Source: Patescibacteria group bacterium
Lineage (GTDB): Bacteria; Patescibacteriota; Minisyncoccia; Phycocordibacterales; JAACPR01
Assembly (NCBI GenBank): GCA_022711495.1
Contig: JAKLEX010000001.1
Coordinates: forward strand, 23,058-87,057
Direction of reading: 5' to 3'
Length of the DNA stretch: 64,000 nucleotides
The notes below the pieces were generated by a model that saw only the letters and a program-made list of their open reading frames with translations, was not told the DNA's origin and did not search any database. The translations under genes were made by a program, and so were the position numbers. This document shows positions 4,033 through 18,888 of this stretch, in pieces (the first letter of the stretch is position 1; each line of letters opens with the position of its first letter).

Positions 4033-4869
4033 ATGACAAAGTTTGATCAAATTTATCAGAGAATCCTCAAGGATATAATGACAAATGGGATCAAAGAATA
4101 TTCGGAACGAACCAAACTGGAATGCACTGTTTTGCCGGGCGTTCACTTCTCCATAGATCCAGAAAAGGACGGCTTTCCTCTCCAAACTTTGCGAAAGATT
4201 CCTCTCAAATCAGTAATCGCCGAACAGATTTGGTTTTTAAGCGGAGCCCGGAAACCCGAAGATTTTTTACGTGACTACACAAAAATCTGGGACGCCTTTA
4301 CCAACCCAGGAGACGTCGTAACCGTCGCTTACGGCTATCGCTGGAGAAAACATTTTGGACGCGACCAAATCGGCGCGCTGATTAAACTTCTGCAAAAAGA
4401 GCCGAGTTCGCGACAGGGAGTCGTCGTGACTTGGGATCCTGGACAAGATGGTTTGGGCGCCGCCAAAAAAGCCAACGTCCCCTGCCCTTACACTTTCACC
4501 GTCAATATCATCGGCGGTAAATTACATTTGCATAACATGGTTCGCTCAAACGACATGATGCTTGGCTTTCCATTTGATGTCGCCGGTTTTTGTTTGCTTC
4601 AATATATTTTGGCACAAAAATTGGGAGTTGGCGTTGGAATTTATTCTCACTCTATTTCCAACGCCCATGTTTATGAAAATCATTACGAGGGAGCACGAGA
4701 AATTTTGAAGAGAGAAAATGATCATCCGCCAATAAAATTGATTTTGCCGAAAAATAGTCTGGCTCGTGCTGAAAAAAAAGATAAAAAGCTTCTTGACGAA
4801 ATATTTGATATCCTTAATAAACAATATCACCCACTTGAAAATATTGGCGGCTTAAAAATAGCAAAATAA
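4033..4869 (+). CDS. thyA: Thymidylate synthase (ThyA family)
   Basis: It has RSNDMMLGFPFDVAGFCLLQYILAQ (compare RSxDxxLGxPFNIASYALL in ThyA). A catalytic-Cys-like region is present (VPCPYTF), along with Arg/Trp motifs (YGYRWR). Confidence 0.85.
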   Translation: MTKFDQIYQRILKDIMTNGIKEYSERTKLECTVLPGVHFSIDPEKDGFPLQTLRKIPLKSVIAEQIWFLSGARKPEDFLRDYTKIWDAFTNPGDVVTVAYGYRWRKHFGRDQIGALIKLLQKEPSSRQGVVVTWDPGQDGLGAAKKANVPCPYTFTVNIIGGKLHLHNMVRSNDMMLGFPFDVAGFCLLQYILAQKLGVGVGIYSHSISNAHVYENHYEGAREILKRENDHPPIKLILPKNSLARAEKKDKKLLDEIFDILNKQYHPLENIGGLKIAK

Positions 4870-6564: not shown

Positions 6565-7110
6565 TTAAATTTTCTTAACTTGCAAGAAATCAAGCTCAAC
6601 CGGCGTTTCGCGGCCGAACATGGAAACGTTGACCTTGATTTTCCCGCGAGTTTCGTCAATCTCTTCAACTCGTCCCTCCAATTCCTTAAACGGTCCCTCA
6701 ACAACGATGATAACGTCGCCAACCATCAAATCAATTTTGTGTTTAGCCGTATCGGTTTTCATGCGGTTGAACAAGTCTTCAACTTCTTTCTTAGAAAGAG
6801 GGACCGGATAGACGCCAGACCCAACAAAACCAGTGACTCGCGGAGTATTTCTGACCACATACCAGGAATCGTCGGTCACAATCATATCAACCAGAACATA
6901 TCCGGGATAAATTTTTTCCTCAACTTCCACTCGTTTATTGCCTTTTATCCTGATTTTTTTCTCGGTAGGGACAAGAACATTAAAGATTCTGTCCCCCATG
7001 GCCAAAGATTCTATTCGCTGGGCCAAGTTTTTAGCAACGGCGTTTTCATAGCCAGCATAAGTATGAATGGCATACCAGTTGCGTTCACGTGTTGGTTGTT
7101 GTTTTGACAT
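6565..7110 (-). CDS. nusG: Transcription termination/antitermination factor NusG
   Basis: It has an NGN domain (WYAIHTYAGYENAVAKNL) and a C-terminal KOW motif (GDVIIVVEGPFKELEGRVEEID). It lies between secE and rplK, as is usual. Confidence 0.95.
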   Translation of the reverse strand: MSKQQPTRERNWYAIHTYAGYENAVAKNLAQRIESLAMGDRIFNVLVPTEKKIRIKGNKRVEVEEKIYPGYVLVDMIVTDDSWYVVRNTPRVTGFVGSGVYPVPLSKKEVEDLFNRMKTDTAKHKIDLMVGDVIIVVEGPFKELEGRVEEIDETRGKIKVNVSMFGRETPVELDFLQVKKI

Positions 7111-7113
7111 ATT

Positions 7114-7296
7114 TTACGAAACAAAGAAGTTCTTAATAATGTTAACGAAAGCAAAATCAAAAAAGCCCAAATAAAGTGAAACAGCGACAGAGATAATTAT
7201 CACCAAAGCCGTGTAAACTATTGTCTGCTTTCTTGACGGCCAGCTGACATGCTTCAATTCGCTTGTCGTCTCCTTGAAAAAATTCATTAATCCCAT
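7114..7296 (-). CDS. secE: Preprotein translocase subunit SecE
   Basis: A 60-aa single-TM protein (FFKETTSELKHVSWPSRKQTIVYTALVIII) sits immediately upstream of nusG. Confidence 0.8.
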   Translation of the reverse strand: MGLMNFFKETTSELKHVSWPSRKQTIVYTALVIIISVAVSLYLGFFDFAFVNIIKNFFVS

Positions 7297-7321
7297 AATG
7301 TTGTTTGGTTATTTAAAAAAG

Positions 7322-7372
7322 CCCCTTTCAGGGCGGTGATTCTTATGCTATCACCAGGGGCTTTTTTAGTCA
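7322..7372. terminator. Rho-independent terminator hairpin, readable on both strands; 3' of the SIMPL gene
   Basis: aaaaagcccctttcagggcggtgattcttatgctatcaccaggggctttttt is a GC-rich stem flanked by A/T runs. Confidence 0.55.
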
Positions 7373-7384
7373 AGCGATGTAACG

Positions 7385-8173
7385 CTACTTTATTTCGTAA
7401 TCAACGTGAACTGTATAAGTTATTTTCTGTTCTCCAACCGGGATATCTGGAGAGGCTACTGATTTGGCGCCCATTCCGCCCGCTTCTTCATAGCCGTAAT
7501 CATACATCGGGTAACTGCCGGAATCTTCATAGAAGCCGACAACTCTAACCAGTCTGACACCGAGACTTTCTGCCAATTCTTTTGCCTTTGCTTGAGCATC
7601 TTCAATCGCCAACTTTTTAGCTTGTTCTTCCAAAGCATCGCGATCGTCAGAAGTGAAACTTAGTCCACTGACATTAGAAATTCCCAGTGATCCTATACCG
7701 GACAAAAGGTCTCCGGCCTTAGAGGTGTCTCGGACTTTTACCGTAACGGTTTGGCTGACTTCATAGCCGATGATCTCTTCATATCCGCCCGGACAATAAT
7801 AATCGCTACAAACTTCGGAAATCCAACGAGTTTTCGGATAGATGTTATAGCTTGAAGTCTCCAAGTCCTTTTCCTCAACTCCGTTATCCTTCAAATATTT
7901 TAAAGCTTTGTTAGTTTTTTCGGAAGCCGCCGACTGAGCTAACTCAACATTTTCTGACGCTTCGGTAATAGAAAAGTTGAAAGTCGCTATATCCGGAACA
8001 GCCACAACCTCGCCTTCTCCCGCGATAGAAATGCTTGAATAAAAATCATCATCAAAAGAATCAATGGTGATGCTGACTAGATATACCGATAAAAGTATGG
8101 CCACAATCAAAACCGCTACAACCACCCACCCAAAAGCATACTGCCAATTCTCAAATATTTTCTTAAGATTCAT
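7385..8173 (-). CDS. SIMPL/DUF541 family periplasmic protein (YggE-like), membrane-anchored
   Basis: It has an N-terminal TM segment. The domain's length and organisation match SIMPL-domain proteins (e.g. KALKYLKDNGVEEKDLETSSYNIYP ... EQAKKLAIEDAQAKAKELAESLGV). Confidence 0.65.
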   Translation of the reverse strand: MNLKKIFENWQYAFGWVVVAVLIVAILLSVYLVSITIDSFDDDFYSSISIAGEGEVVAVPDIATFNFSITEASENVELAQSAASEKTNKALKYLKDNGVEEKDLETSSYNIYPKTRWISEVCSDYYCPGGYEEIIGYEVSQTVTVKVRDTSKAGDLLSGIGSLGISNVSGLSFTSDDRDALEEQAKKLAIEDAQAKAKELAESLGVRLVRVVGFYEDSGSYPMYDYGYEEAGGMGAKSVASPDIPVGEQKITYTVHVDYEIK

Positions 8174-10133: not shown

Positions 10134-10166
10134 TCCTTTGTTTCATGGGCGACTATCGGGAATCGG
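10134..10166. repeat. Distal copy of a 33-bp perfect direct repeat that duplicates the tRNA-His 3' end (18 nt) plus 15 nt of downstream flank
   Basis: ctcctttgtttcatgggcgactatcgggaatcg is identical to 10278-10310, 144 bp away. Confidence 0.9.
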
Positions 10167-10277
10167 TCACAGGTTCGGCTACGCCGACCCGCGACCCCGA
10201 CTCACTCGCTACGCTCGCTCCGTCTTTCGATTCCGAAGTCTTCCTGAAACAAAAGTCGCCGACTCGTTCCGAGCCGG

Positions 10278-10310
10278 CTCCTTTGTTTCATGGGCGACTA
10301 TCGGGAATCG
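10278..10310. repeat. Proximal copy of the 33-bp direct repeat; it overlaps the genuine 3' end of tRNA-His
   Basis: Identical 33-mer. It includes the T-arm 3' half and the acceptor 3' strand of the tRNA-His gene on the minus strand. Confidence 0.9.
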
Positions 10311-12108: not shown

Positions 12109-12864
12109 TTATTTAATCAAGGAAATCGCCCTCTCAAAATCTAGCGGATAAGGCGCCTCAAAAGAAAGTATTTGCCCCTTCGGATCAATAAATCGCAAAC
12201 TTTTCGCGTGTAGGGCCATCCTTGAAAATCCAAGCAGAGATTCTCGGTTAGGCGCGTAAAGATTGTCGCAAACAATCGGATGATAAATGTGTTTTAAGTG
12301 AACTCTTATTTGATGAGTCCGACCGGTTTTGGGAGAAGCTTCAATGAAAGTTACGGATTTGTCGGTGGCTCTTTTCAGAACTTCAATATTTGTAACGGCT
12401 TCCCTTTTTTCACCGCGAGCACGCAAGCCGGCCAGCCATTGGCGAAAATTCTTTTTGCTTCGACCGATTGGTTCGTCAATGGTCAAAAACTTTTCTTTAA
12501 TATTTCCATAAACAAAGGCGTGATATTTTTTCTCAATTAAACGATCTTGAAATTGCTTTTTTAAATATTCAAAAAACTTCTGGTTGCGGGCGACAATCAT
12601 CACGCCGGAAGTATCGCGATCCAAACGGTGAACGATTCCCGGCCGATCAATTGAAATTTTTTTGCCGGTTTCTTGATCTAGAATAAGCGCCGGCTCGCCG
12701 ACGCCCTTAATTGCAGGATATTTTTTTAAAAGAAAATCGCAGAGCGTCGACTCTTTTGTCCGGCCGTCGGAGTGAACGACAAGGTCGGCCGGCTTATTTA
12801 TTATCAAAAAGTCTTTATCAGCTTTGAGGATTTCGGGGGTTAGATTGTAAGTACCGCGAGGCAT
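12109..12864 (-). CDS. RluA-family pseudouridine synthase
   Basis: The catalytic motif HRLDRDTSGVMIVARN is present. The length and the C-terminal region are typical of RluA/RluD-like enzymes. Confidence 0.85.
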   Translation of the reverse strand: MPRGTYNLTPEILKADKDFLIINKPADLVVHSDGRTKESTLCDFLLKKYPAIKGVGEPALILDQETGKKISIDRPGIVHRLDRDTSGVMIVARNQKFFEYLKKQFQDRLIEKKYHAFVYGNIKEKFLTIDEPIGRSKKNFRQWLAGLRARGEKREAVTNIEVLKRATDKSVTFIEASPKTGRTHQIRVHLKHIYHPIVCDNLYAPNRESLLGFSRMALHAKSLRFIDPKGQILSFEAPYPLDFERAISLIK

Positions 12865-12869
12865 CTGTG

Positions 12870-12943
12870 TGGGCGCTAAGGGACTTGAACCCCTGACCTA
12901 CCCGGTGTAAACGGGTTGCTCTAGCCAACTGAGCTAAGCGCCC
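12870..12943 (-). tRNA. tRNA-Val (anticodon TAC)
   Basis: Hand-folded: acceptor GGGCGCT/AGCGCCC, D-stem GCTC/GAGC, anticodon stem ACCCG/CGGGT with loop TTTACAC, T-arm AGGGG-TTCAAGT-CCCTT. Confidence 0.85.
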
Positions 12944-12974
12944 AAATTCAATTTTCTATTTTAATACAAGTTAC

Positions 12975-13038
12975 GGTCCTGACCTGCCCGGTGTCTGTCT
13001 GAAGCTGGGGTTGCTCTAGCCAACTGAGCTAAGCGCCC
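12975..13038 (-). pseudogene. Truncated tandem copy of tRNA-Val: 5' 31 nt identical, anticodon region replaced, no T-arm/acceptor 3' strand
   Basis: GGGCGCTTAGCTCAGTTGGCTAGAGCAACCC is identical to tRNA-Val positions 1-31. It continues CAGCTTCAGACAGACACCGGGCAGGTCAGG, retaining ACACCGGG-AGGTCAGG but with a 15-nt substitution in the anticodon loop. It then diverges. Confidence 0.7.
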
Positions 13039-13094
13039 AACAGAATGAGAATACCAAAAAAAAAGAAGAGTGGCTAGATAGTAAATAGAATTAA

Positions 13095-13136
13095 ATAAAA
13101 AAGAGGGAGCTGTTTTCACATACTCCCCCGAGCTCC
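13095..13136 (-). terminator. Rho-independent terminator 3' of the GC-rich hypothetical gene
   Basis: On the minus strand, gaggagctcgggggagtatgtgaaaacagctccctc is followed by tttttt. Confidence 0.5.
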
Positions 13137-13901
13137 TCACCACAACATAAGACTCGCCCGATATTGCTCCAACTGCGCCGTCCAATCATGTATGACCTTC
13201 AATTGGCCGTGGCGGCTGATAAAGATCCTCTGCTGAAATCCGGGATCAGAATAGTACGGCCTCGGATTAAAAATTTCTCCGCGATGGCCGAGACTCTCTA
13301 TTGCTCCATTTCCGCGGGCAAACTGCGAGAACAGGGCAGATGTTTCCATGAGTCCCTCCAAACCAATCTCCTGCCAAGAGACGAGGCTTTGTCCATCACT
13401 CGCGGCCAATCTTTTGGCAATCTCGGGCACATTCTCATCGCCCGAAACCAACGCCCGAAACATCCGGGCGTGGGAGAGCGCACCGGCCGGTGAAACAAAC
13501 GACCCGTGAGCTTTTGACAAAAGCCAGATCCCTCGTCCGCTCTGGTCAAGGTGAAAATCCACGGAAAGAGTAATCTGAAGATCAAATCTGGAACCGCCCT
13601 CTTCCGCCGGTTTGAAATTCCAGAAATTGCTTGGGACCCACCCAGGAATCTGTTCGTGGGGATTTTCATCAATGAGCGTAAAAACGGTGTCCTGACAATC
13701 CGGACGGGGCTGGCGATTAATTTTGTGCCCTGCCAATGTGGCCAGTAACTTATCGTCCAGCTCATACACCTTGATCGGACCGGAGTACGCTTTGGACACT
13801 CCGATATGAAGTGCCAGATTGCAGTGACTGGCTACCCTTTGCAACAAATCAGCAAGGGTAAAGCAATCAACACCGACCACTAAGTGCGGCAAACCATTCA
13901 T
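13137..13901 (-). CDS. Hypothetical protein encoded in a GC-rich islet between tRNA-Val and tRNA-Arg
   Basis: 254-aa ORF. It is noticeably more G+C-rich by eye than the surrounding genes, which also gives long antisense shadow ORFs. It has no signal peptide and no family I recognise. Confidence 0.45.
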   Translation of the reverse strand: MNGLPHLVVGVDCFTLADLLQRVASHCNLALHIGVSKAYSGPIKVYELDDKLLATLAGHKINRQPRPDCQDTVFTLIDENPHEQIPGWVPSNFWNFKPAEEGGSRFDLQITLSVDFHLDQSGRGIWLLSKAHGSFVSPAGALSHARMFRALVSGDENVPEIAKRLAASDGQSLVSWQEIGLEGLMETSALFSQFARGNGAIESLGHRGEIFNPRPYYSDPGFQQRIFISRHGQLKVIHDWTAQLEQYRASLMLW

Positions 13902-13986
13902 CGTAGTCTCCTTTGACTTATATTAGGTTGTGAACTATGCAGATCCAAATCTGAGACTAACAAAGAGAGAAGTAAAAATCAACTTG

Positions 13987-14058
13987 TCCTCTCGGCAGGA
14001 ATCGAACCCACATCAATGCCTTAGAAGAGCACTGCTCTATCCATTGAGCTACGAGAGG
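13987..14058 (-). tRNA. tRNA-Arg (anticodon TCT)
   Basis: Hand-folded: acceptor CCTCTCG/CGAGAGG, D-stem GCTC/GAGC, anticodon loop CTTCTAA, T-loop TTCGATT. Confidence 0.75.
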
Positions 14059-17491: not shown

Positions 17492-17675
17492 CAACGACTT
17501 GTGAAGACGGGCAAAGCTCGTCTGAACAAGGCGTCTGCGAAAATAGCGAGGGTGAGATGAGAAAGACGGACTGAGCGAAAATGAGCGAAGCGAATTTTTG
17601 CGAAGGAGTCGGGGTCGCGAACACTTAGATTTTTACGAGCCGAGTTTAGCGAGGCGAAGTAAAAAGCTTAGTGAT

Positions 17676-17703
17676 TCGTGACCGAATCTCACTCTCTCCG
17701 CAA
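17676..17703. repeat. Direct repeat of the tRNA-Ser 3' end, 190-209 bp downstream of the tRNA
   Basis: cgaatctcactctctccgcaa at 17683-17703 is identical to 17474-17494 (21 bp exact), with an imperfect extension (tcgtga-ccgaatctc vs tcgtgagttcgaatctc). It overlaps the stop codon of the HD-domain gene. Confidence 0.85.
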
Positions 17704-18171
17704 ATTATCCAAATACCCCACTGCCCCATCCGTCATCTTTTTTATAAAAGCAACGTCTTCAGGAAGAACTTTCTCTTGTTCTAAAATTAATTTCAGTGTC
17801 GGAATATTTAAGATGCTTAATTTGTCCGCCATCTGCAAAATTTTTGCTTCTTGAGATTCCGGCTTTCCGCCCGTTCCGTGATTCAAGATACAATCTCTCA
17901 TCTCCGACGATAGTTCAAAACCTTTCTGCTCAAGCAATTTAACACTATGCTCTGCGTGATTATCTTTTTCCACTAAATACCCGATGTCATGAACCCAGGC
18001 GGCCGTTTCAACCAACTCCTGATCGCAATTCGCTTTTTTAGCAAGGGTAACCGCGATCTCCGCCACTGAAGCGGAGTGAATTCTGGCAAAATCGCCTTCA
18101 ATTCTATCTCGGTAAGACTGAAAACAGTCTCGAGCAATTTGTTTTGCCAACTCTAGTGTAAGTTTTTTCAT
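17689..18171 (-). CDS. HD-domain phosphohydrolase (HDIG-like)
   Basis: The HD motif is present in AAWVHDIGYLVEKDNHAEHS. The likely true start is MKKLTLELAK at 18171. The 88-aa N-terminal extension in the track (17689-18432) runs through GC-rich sequence and is probably spurious. Confidence 0.7.
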   Translation of the reverse strand: MKKLTLELAKQIARDCFQSYRDRIEGDFARIHSASVAEIAVTLAKKANCDQELVETAAWVHDIGYLVEKDNHAEHSVKLLEQKGFELSSEMRDCILNHGTGGKPESQEAKILQMADKLSILNIPTLKLILEQEKVLPEDVAFIKKMTDGAVGYLDNLRRE

Positions 18172-18175
18172 ATAA

Positions 18176-18226
18176 AAAATTATACAACAAAAAAACAAAA
18201 GCGCGTCATTGCTGACGCGCTCGTAC
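18176..18226 (-). terminator. Rho-independent terminator 3' of the small GC-rich ORF
   Basis: On the minus strand, agcgcgtcagcaatgacgcgct is followed by tttgtttttttg. Confidence 0.55.
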
Positions 18227-18244
18227 AAACAACATCTCGCGGAA

Positions 18245-18472
18245 TCATTCTTGGTCGGCCACGACCATTGCAGCGCTGGACGACGAACCTCCGGCGCGTG
18301 CCCGAGCGTACTGGCCCCGAACCCAATTGAAGGTAAGCCCGGCAATAATCGCCAAAACGGCCAGAATGCCGACGGCGGCGGCCGTCTCCAGAGACGGCGA
18401 TATCTGCCTTGCCTCGTGCGCGTCTCGCTCAATCAGCTCTTCATCCGGCATGTCTTGAATATTTTCGTTCAT
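18245..18472 (-). CDS. Small (75 aa) membrane-anchored hypothetical protein in a GC-rich islet
   Basis: It has an acidic N-terminus, a TM helix (AAAVGILAVLAIIAGLTF) and an Ala/Ser/Arg-rich C-terminus. It has its own terminator. Its composition differs from the neighbouring genes. Confidence 0.4.
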   Translation of the reverse strand: MNENIQDMPDEELIERDAHEARQISPSLETAAAVGILAVLAIIAGLTFNWVRGQYARARAGGSSSSAAMVVADQE

Positions 18473-18567
18473 CTGATCCGCTCCTGTTTTGATGTCTTTA
18501 TATGTACTCGAACTCCTCCACTTCCTGGCGGATTATAACAACACGAGTGGACATTTGTCAAATGCCC

Positions 18568-18610
18568 GCATCTAAAACACCGCGTCTAAAACACCGCGTC
18601 TAAAACACGC
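18568..18610. repeat. Three tandem copies of a 14-bp unit (c[a/g]tctaaaacaccg), ~100 bp upstream of the small GC-rich ORF
   Basis: catctaaaacaccg-cgtctaaaacaccg-cgtctaaaacacgc. Iteron- or operator-like. Confidence 0.8.
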
Positions 18611-18615
18611 TGACG

Positions 18616-18888
18616 TTACTTCGCCAGACTATTCATGTGATCTTCCAGATCCTTCAGTCGGTCATCGGAAATATTACTCGTCTTTCTTAAAATTTCTATT
18701 CCCTGTTTTATCTCCTTTTTATCAATTCCAGATTCAGAATTTGACTCATCCAAGTGGCCGGCAAAAGCCATCTTAACCTTGTCCCGATCGGCGGAACTCC
18801 AATTTCGAGCGGAAAGATGACTCAAGACCCTTTCTCGAAACTCGGTCTTGGAAACATTCGGCTTTGAACTGTTCCAAAATAATCCCAT
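18616..18888 (-). CDS. Hypothetical 90-aa protein
   Basis: An ORF with plausible coding composition. It has no TM segment and no family I recognise. Confidence 0.4.
   Translation of the reverse strand: MGLFWNSSKPNVSKTEFRERVLSHLSARNWSSADRDKVKMAFAGHLDESNSESGIDKKEIKQGIEILRKTSNISDDRLKDLEDHMNSLAK

Follow-up and report, generated by a model that had tools for sequence, protein, structure and literature searches.

A single-gene cassette and a partial tRNA-Val copy as probably independent insertions between tRNA-Arg and tRNA-Val in a Patescibacteria genome

When a fragment of a transfer RNA (tRNA) gene lies beside a gene of foreign composition, does the fragment mark the place at which that gene entered the genome? 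The question is raised by a locus in a 64,000-nucleotide (nt) stretch of a Patescibacteria group bacterium (assembly GCA_022711495.1, contig JAKLEX010000001.1, positions 23,058 to 87,057), hereafter the window, whose own numbering is used throughout. Read along its minus strand, the locus consists of tRNA-Arg(TCT), a 254-amino-acid (aa) open reading frame (ORF) of an uncharacterised family, a terminator, the tRNA-Val promoter, a partial copy of tRNA-Val (the pseudo-copy), a spacer, the intact tRNA-Val(TAC) and, after 5 nt, an RluA-family pseudouridine synthase gene. The original prediction had proposed that the ORF is a horizontally acquired islet and that the partial tRNA-Val copy marks its acquisition. 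Our analysis upholds the first proposal and contradicts the second: very probably, two independent lineage-specific insertions, an acquired cassette and a pseudo-Val insert, lie side by side at a recombination hot spot between tRNA-Arg and tRNA-Val. As such, the locus is an ordinary kind of feature, a tRNA insertion hot spot with an uncharacterised mobile single-gene cassette.

The acquisition of the ORF is most directly seen in relatives, which were found by searching with the neighbouring RluA protein (63-78% identical) and are represented by contigs, here L063, L064/L065, L066, L069, L070 and L067. All six relatives keep the order tRNA-Arg, tRNA-Val, RluA-family synthase and L19, and ORF254 was not found in the tRNA-Arg/tRNA-Val interval of any of them. 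In L063, L064/L065, L066 and L069, whose RluA proteins are 75-78% identical to that of the window (73% in L070), the conserved order runs from RuvX through a tRNA-binding protein, PilM/N/O-like genes and a small ORF to tRNA-Arg(tct), tRNA-Val(tac), RluA, L19, tRNA-Leu and a Na/Ca exchanger, and the two tRNA genes are separated by 52-61 nt, comprising 6-15 nt, the motif CTAGCCA-N17-TATTCT and a leader of 14-16 nt. Alignment of the window with L063, L064, L066, L069 and L070 revealed a window-specific block of 907 nt (13078-13984, minus strand) placed exactly between GGACA, the end of tRNA-Arg, and CTAGCCA, the -35 element of tRNA-Val, the matching region being 6-15 nt in the relatives and 50 nt in L070; a second window-specific block of 95 nt corresponds to the pseudo-copy and its spacer. 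The compact, ORF-free interval in the relatives indicates that the window gained approximately 900 nt, without damage to either tRNA gene or to the tRNA-Val promoter. Upstream, the insertion borders on tRNA-Arg (13985-14058, minus strand; Rfam tRNA, 64.6 bits), for which ARAGORN gave 13986-14058 and the end base 13985 was set from the alignment with the relatives (tool starts 13986/13987). Every contig with the exact ORF or the exact RluA protein showed the same arrangement, with no strain variant devoid of the ORF or the pseudo-copy among them. Among metagenomes of JGI, the best match to RluA was 49% identical and had no synteny.

Composition points in the same direction. Measured against the 64-kilobase (kb) window, the ORF (13137-13901, minus strand) has a G+C content of 51.8%, compared with a window ORF mean of 43.5% (z = +3.1), and 56.1% at third codon positions (z = +2.65), and among 65 ORFs none has a higher value on either count; of 28 ORFs of similar size, it also departs furthest in synonymous codon usage (z = +2.6), and its product is poor in Lys/Ile. 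The original prediction had judged the ORF by eye to be distinctly richer in G+C than the flanking genes, and these z-scores agree. The ORF thus shows the composition and codon usage of horizontally acquired DNA, is confined to the window among the relatives compared, and has non-syntenic homologues; neither a normal composition nor a position shared with the relatives was found, and the proposal of an acquired islet is well supported. The opposite history, with the ORF already here in the ancestor and later lost from the relatives, appears very improbable. Streamlined genomes readily lose genes, and the relatives are seen as contigs, both of which would suit it. It would nevertheless require at least three separate clean losses (in L070, in the crown clade and in L067) in place of one gain, and it sits poorly with the outlying composition of the ORF, with a nearest homologue that is 54% identical when the flanking core proteins are 75-78% identical, and with a family that is non-syntenic everywhere but in L022/L023.

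The same spacer has received other DNA elsewhere in the lineage. The more distant L067 carries a different, 2.3-kb insert of three genes (L067 1166-3466; a TrmB-like regulator and two unknown ORFs) between tRNA-Arg and tRNA-Val, flanked by GGACATTAAAAC direct repeats made up of the tRNA-Arg end plus spacer, its composition not being atypical (36.5% vs 36.3%). In L064, a Bestrophin-like extra gene (7029-7757), absent from L063 and the window, directly follows tRNA-His. Together these inserts mark the flanks of tRNA genes as recurrent insertion sites in this lineage.

What was inserted appears to be a complete transcription unit. The cassette is composed of a predicted sigma-70-type promoter (13954-13982, minus strand) that starts 2 nt after tRNA-Arg, with a -35 element TTGATT (13982-13977), a 17-nt spacer ending in TGT and a -10 element TAGTCT (13959-13954), followed by a 5' untranslated region (UTR), a ribosome-binding site (AAGGAGAC, 13913-13906), the ORF and an intrinsic terminator (13093-13129, minus strand). 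The latter reads GGGGGAG-TA-TGT-GAAA-ACA-G-CTCCCTC then T6 (13129-13093), giving a stem of 7 bp + 3 bp with a GNRA-type GAAA loop. This G+C-rich hairpin directly before a U-run has the form of a rho-independent terminator, and it is kept in homologous cassettes with three compensatory pairs in the upper stem, in accordance with the earlier claim that the ORF has its own terminator. A simple terminator scanner had missed the hairpin because it permits only loops of 3-8 nt without bulges.

The same promoter-to-terminator unit recurs in many other Patescibacteria genomes, in unrelated neighbourhoods and preferentially just downstream of a tRNA. This was analysed in 23 loci from GTDB species representatives and contigs from look-ups, in which the family gene stands alone as an insert: none of the protein families encoded around it is found at three or more of the 23 loci, no integrase domain was detected among the called neighbours of the homologues, and shared synteny is limited to L022 and L023, where the gene lies between gyrB and secE-nusG. 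The DNA common to the loci spans about -79 (the -35 box) to +55-80 (the terminator end) relative to the ORF; the promoter and the 5' UTR (~45 nt), with a GGAGG ribosome-binding site, are alignable across loci, and the family promoter motif TTGAyTTTT...TTTTGCTAAT is conserved upstream of homologues at no fewer than 12 unrelated loci, consistent with the predicted promoter activity of the cassette. Since promoter, 5' UTR, ribosome-binding site and terminator are conserved as a shared unit, what travels is likely to be a whole monocistronic transcription unit. At 8 of 23 loci a tRNA is located no more than 300 nt upstream of the family gene, compared with 19 of 225 background ORFs of the same loci (Fisher p = 0.001); these tRNAs are Ala, Trp, Ser (twice), Val, Leu, Arg and Glu, seven of them on the same strand. 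The homologue is the GC-richest ORF of its ~12-kb neighbourhood at 9 of 21 loci and the GC-poorest at 1 of 21, a pattern suggesting a compositional mismatch with the host, not an intrinsic bias. No convincing tRNA-derived repeats were seen around the homologous cassettes.

Some observations on individual family members may be added. L022 and L023 are contigs of 1.5 Mb and 322 kb with 53-62% G+C; their family products are 49% identical while their GyrB and NusG are 82-84% identical, indicating that the family gene evolves much faster than its core neighbours. One of the two bins is labelled Gammaproteobacteria, which calls either the family range or the bin labels into question. On the antisense strand of G+C-rich homologue genes, an ORF exceeding the length of the gene itself is present in L007, L008, L012, L015, L020 and L024; these antisense ORFs are probably a by-product of gene composition and could mislead gene callers.

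The product of the ORF offers few clues to its role. Searches with the single sequence or with a 90-member alignment gave no match in Pfam, NCBIfam, PHROGs, PADLOC or PDB sequences. A word-indexed search yielded 21 homologues of ~253 aa, and an exhaustive search 157 clusters at 50% identity; organism labels, where given, are Patescibacteria or Paceibacterota (Candidatus Paceibacterota for the exact protein of the ORF), and the sole product name is 'hypothetical protein'. An AlphaFold (AF2) model built from 17 sequences reached a predicted local distance difference test score of 81 and a predicted template modelling (TM) score of 0.79, and Foldseek searches with it gave no significant neighbour in PDB (best E 0.5, TM 0.15) or BFVD. 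Across the broad family the best-conserved residues are mainly aromatic, Gly and Pro; conserved polar residues are few (D78 in 87% and Q243 in 94%), such that no catalytic motif stands out. The model depicts a predicted soluble alpha/beta protein without a recognisable catalytic signature or known fold. A phage origin of the cassette was considered and rejected, as the protein has no relative in IMG/VR viral contigs.

Does the partial tRNA-Val copy belong to the same event? It occupies 12978-13038 (61 nt, read from 13038 to 12978 on the minus strand), and an exact direct repeat of 33 nt (12913-12945 = 13008-13040) covers tRNA positions 1-31 plus 2 leader bases. A 13-nt block, CAGCTTCAGACAG, then replaces GTTT and is followed by ACACCGGGcAGGTCAGG, a 17-nt segment with 1 mismatch to tRNA-Val (positions 35-51/52); neither a T-arm nor a 3' acceptor strand is present, and the anticodon loop has grown by 9 nt. 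An A+T-rich spacer of 34 nt (12944-12977, minus strand) leads to the intact tRNA-Val (12869-12943, minus strand; ARAGORN 12869/12870-12943; Rfam, 68.8 bits). The original prediction had described a partial copy 34 nt upstream of the intact gene, with positions 1-31 kept exactly and everything from the T-arm onward lost, all of which is confirmed here; it had also reported the exchange of GTTT for a 15-nt block, which is right as to the exchange but not as to the length. Two more assemblies made independently (JGI, NCBI) contain exactly this sequence, and a k-mer assembly is interrupted within the repeat, so that the pseudo-copy cannot be put down to misassembly. A search of the window for templates of the 13-nt block or the 34-nt spacer gave nothing beyond chance 11-mers, and the block has no exact match in viral contigs.

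The pseudo-copy does not behave as a tRNA. Neither ARAGORN nor Rfam (E ≤ 10, searched over 12930-13140) called a tRNA on it, and it folds no better than shuffled sequence, with a z-score of +1.0 (overall +0.1 to +1.2) compared with -3.45 for the minimum-free-energy cloverleaf of the real tRNA-Val. It thus has neither the cloverleaf nor the model recognition of a functional tRNA, and a foldable tRNA variant is not what the sequence holds. A structured RNA of another kind was likewise rejected, no stable or conserved fold being present.

The order of events was clarified by L070 (ENA ERZ18242730 contig), in which an orthologous pseudo-tRNA-Val is found at 634-727 and ORF254 is absent. In it, tRNA positions 1-30 are followed by a 13-nt block with ACAG at its end, positions 35-51, GACCG and an A+T-rich spacer of 29 nt, and it stands behind the full ancestral leader and before the intact tRNA-Val. 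CTAGCCA-N17-TATTCT is conserved directly upstream of tRNA-Val in L063, L064, L066, L069 and L070, the pseudo-Val coming first in L070. The L070 arrangement suggests that the pseudo-copy occupies the ancestral gene position and that the promoter now points into the pseudo-copy; in the window this predicted promoter (TAGCCA, 17 nt, (TGG)TATTCT) is located at 13048-13076, minus strand. A model in which a 95-nt insert had split a 15-nt ancestral leader was rejected, since in L070 the full leader precedes the pseudo-copy. Because L070 has the pseudo-copy and no ORF, the pseudo-copy is a separate event, not a by-product of the arrival of the cassette, and on the more parsimonious reading of the tree described below it is most likely the older of the two.

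These data bear directly on the reading in which one tRNA-targeted integrative element supplied both the ORF, as its cargo, and the partial tRNA-Val, as its displaced attachment (att) fragment, as originally predicted. A partial tRNA copy, atypical G+C and bounding tRNAs do form a classic island signature, as the Islander paper (PMC4383910) describes it, and the underlying observations, both repeat and composition, are confirmed. However, the two tRNA-Val copies are adjacent, with a period of 95 nt, instead of enclosing the ORF; cassette and pseudo-copy are separated by the undamaged ancestral tRNA-Val promoter; and L070 holds the pseudo-copy without the ORF. Moreover, there is no integrase in or near the insert, which consists of one ORF matching nothing in the domain and defence collections searched, and no fragment of tRNA-Arg or tRNA-Val at the distal cassette end, as a regenerated tRNA with a displaced fragment would entail, the Val copies being outside the cassette. 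A single integrative element is consequently extremely improbable, and we retain two separate insertions.

Comparison of the two pseudo-copies revealed an unusual pattern of conservation. Between the window and L070, the spacer and the 13-nt block are ~50% identical, and the tRNA-like blocks match at 29/31 and 19/22 positions. In the duplicated region, three positions (6, 30 and 41) distinguish the tRNA-Val genes of the two genomes, and in every case the pseudo-copy bears the base of its own genome's tRNA-Val. It is from this match at all differing sites that we infer gene conversion, by which dead fragment and live gene, 90-95 nt apart, would be evolving in concert. In a neighbour-joining tree of RluA and L19, L070 and the window branch successively below a crown clade lacking the pseudo-copy and are sisters in only 18 of 200 bootstraps, a topology that fits one ancient gain of the pseudo-copy and one loss; the loss could run via recombination between the 33-nt repeats, restoring a single gene.

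Retention of the pseudo-copy by selection, either as a leader that competes for the 3' acceptor strand and tunes maturation or as a small RNA, was also considered. Since the ancestral promoter now points into the pseudo-copy, the intact tRNA-Val would probably be transcribed with a leader longer by ~95 nt, which RNase P would remove. In a thermodynamic model of a 177-nt read-through transcript, this leader, by way of the 5' strand of the pseudo-copy, pairs with the 3' end of tRNA-Val in the minimum-free-energy fold, as such a role would demand. It also speaks for selection that the pseudo-copy persists in two lineages with the tRNA-like blocks conserved beside a saturated spacer, although the 33-nt direct repeat could harmlessly delete it. 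On the other hand, the pseudo-copy has no stable fold of its own, gene conversion accounts for the conservation, each copy resembling its own genome, four close relatives manage without it, and neither the 13-nt block nor the spacer is conserved. Selection is therefore a rather unlikely explanation.

Alternatively, the window lineage and L070 could each have gained its copy separately, as the scar of a small or decayed mobile element with the 5' part of tRNA-Val as its target and a replacement 5' segment on board. The boundaries coincide in the two genomes (the tRNA match stops at position 30/31, is taken up again at 35 and stops at 51/52, with GACCG after it), the two genomes are not sisters on the tree, fragments of tRNA 5' ends lie upstream of intact tRNAs in L026 (Arg), L014 (Thr) and L019 (Met), and small inserts recurring at tRNA 3' ends exist in these genomes. 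Yet the Val insert shares no motif with those 3' inserts, has no hairpin and no coding capacity, leaves only 29-34 nt between the copies and has no copy in viral contigs, and a single gain followed by one loss takes no more steps than two gains. We regard independent scars as improbable. The 5' fragments just mentioned are 13-19 nt long and lie 55-110 nt upstream of the respective genes (L026 3087-3105, L014 1842-1854, L019 5245-5257), and nested degenerate tRNA-Pro fragments are present in L001/L007 at about 4470-4552; in these loci every terminal fragment lies on the side to which it corresponds, those of the 5' end upstream and those of the 3' end downstream.

The small 3'-end inserts are of another kind. 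The Val locus had been described as the third tRNA of the window with a partial self-duplication; the count holds, as the His and Ser cases are real, but they cannot be grouped with Val, because they have duplicates of the tRNA 3' end flanking a shared small hairpin insert and Val has a 5' fragment without such an insert. The insert at tRNA-His is located at 10147-10291 (minus strand) and that at tRNA-Ser at 17493-17703 (plus strand); the duplicates are 19-21 nt long and are separated from the gene by an insert of 126-188 nt. Both inserts share GAAAGACGGAsyGAGCG, GAGTCGGGGTCGCG and GTGAC, and both are absent from the close relatives L063/L064/L065. Similar inserts were found in L012 (5276-5489, tRNA-Glu), L067 (1166-1332, tRNA-Arg) and probably L014 (2481-2643, tRNA-Thr), so defining a family of inserts of 126-190 nt, each with a duplicate of 13-21 nt from the tRNA 3' end as its border, that have in common the motifs GAAAGACGGA.., GAG[T/G]CGGGGTCGCGA and ..CGTGACC. 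The core is a long imperfect hairpin (GGTCGCGA...ACTTA / TTAGT...TCGTGACC) with a GAGCGAAGCGA tip; PMC13037366 presents GCGAAGC as a classic ultra-stable DNA mini-hairpin. No parental element or recombinase was found for these inserts, and viral contigs contained no exact copy of their motif. Decayed or cis-mobilisable integrative elements, or a mini-element built on a hairpin, could account for them; they are a different phenomenon from the Val fragment and possibly a more novel one.

How the cassette arrived can be outlined only conditionally. It would have landed in the few bases separating tRNA-Arg from the tRNA-Val promoter, by uptake of DNA followed by illegitimate or tRNA-anchored recombination in tRNA-flanking spacers that tolerate insertions. 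Natural competence has been demonstrated in Saccharibacteria, which belong to the Patescibacteria, according to PMC10633639, and PilM/N/O-like (pilus) genes adjoin the locus. No integrase, att repeats or partner gene accompany the cassette here. It is tempting to speculate that the ~250-aa family is itself the cargo or engine of an integrase-free mini-cassette that spreads by natural transformation, settles beside tRNAs and has a new conflict-type or tRNA-linked function, an idea that we consider a long shot.

Several points weigh against the interpretation as two independent insertions or limit what can be built upon it. The relatives are seen as contigs, and the ORF could exist elsewhere in those genomes. 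The analysis turned up no donor and no insertion mechanism, and no target-site duplication, terminal repeats or microhomology could be recognised at the cassette ends. The event-order tree is built from two short proteins and weakly resolved, so two independent gains of the pseudo-copy could have taken place. The 33-nt repeat should permit harmless deletion of the pseudo-copy, and neutrality alone does not explain its persistence in two lineages. The promoters and the extended tRNA-Val leader are predicted from sequence. Finally, a dispensable accessory or conflict-type gene, whether defensive or selfish, is our best guess for the ORF, held with low confidence and drawn from its distribution alone, which is patchy, mobile, tRNA-adjacent and compositionally foreign.

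Further features surround the locus. The RluA-family gene (12109-12864, minus strand; PF00849; orthologues 63-78% identical) is the core flank that served as synteny anchor. Its start, which lies 5 nt past tRNA-Val in the window, lies 14-33 nt past it in the relatives L063, L064, L066, L069 and L070 (...AAATTGA...), and the window protein has a 5-residue N-terminal extension (MPRGTY...); this difference in start adds another small, lineage-specific rearrangement to the locus. G+C content reaches a second local peak of 51-55% at 18000-18620, overlapping the 5' part of an HD-domain ORF (17689-18432, minus strand) that adjoins the tRNA-Ser insert, and the 14-nt unit CCGC[A/G]TCTAAAACA occurs there in three tandem repeats (18566-18608).

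The locus provides a clean, base-resolved case of gene gain in streamlined Patescibacteria, with an empty site, an alternative cargo in the same spacer and no integrase, and this pattern points to tRNA-flanking spacers as tolerated landing sites, perhaps supplied by natural competence. The unnamed family comprises no fewer than 157 clusters at 50% identity and, with its behaviour of a travelling single-gene cassette and its lack of a recognisable fold, is a reasonable target for work on the functions of microbial dark matter. For island predictors, the locus is a caution that a tRNA fragment beside atypical DNA need not mark the integration of that DNA; here the fragment is an independent, apparently older feature, apparently homogenised by gene conversion.

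Compared with known systems, the cassette resembles integron cassettes in being a single-ORF unit found in many contexts without a mobility gene of its own. Integron cassettes, however, are usually promoterless, carry attC and adjoin an integrase platform, whereas this unit has a plain terminator and a conserved promoter of its own, the latter speaking against an integron cassette; neither an attC-like site nor IntI was observed at the locus, where no dedicated attC search was made. The His and Ser inserts are akin to cis-mobilisable or decayed integrative elements and to elements of the miniature inverted-repeat transposable element type in their duplicates of the tRNA 3' end and in the internal motifs shared across tRNAs and genomes, and they differ in their core, a long imperfect hairpin with a GCGAAGC-type tip. 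To our knowledge, such a hairpin core has not been described for tRNA scars of this kind. The pseudo-copy is comparable to tRNA gene fragments and pseudogenes (van der Gulik et al. 2023, PMC9897764), being a partial, non-functional tRNA beside a canonical gene. It differs from them as a 5' fragment placed upstream, with 34 nt between the copies, instead of a 3' fragment at the far end of an island, and in being common to two species and apparently evolving in concert with the functional gene. Like the tRNA genomic islands of tyrosine integrases covered by Islander (PMC4383910), the locus has foreign, atypical DNA directly at a tRNA 3' end, the relatives lack this DNA at the corresponding site, and the spacer holds different cargo in different genomes; in contrast to those islands, it has no integrase, no pair of regenerated target and displaced fragment around the insert, and a single gene of about 0.9 kb, the unit being promoter, ORF and terminator.

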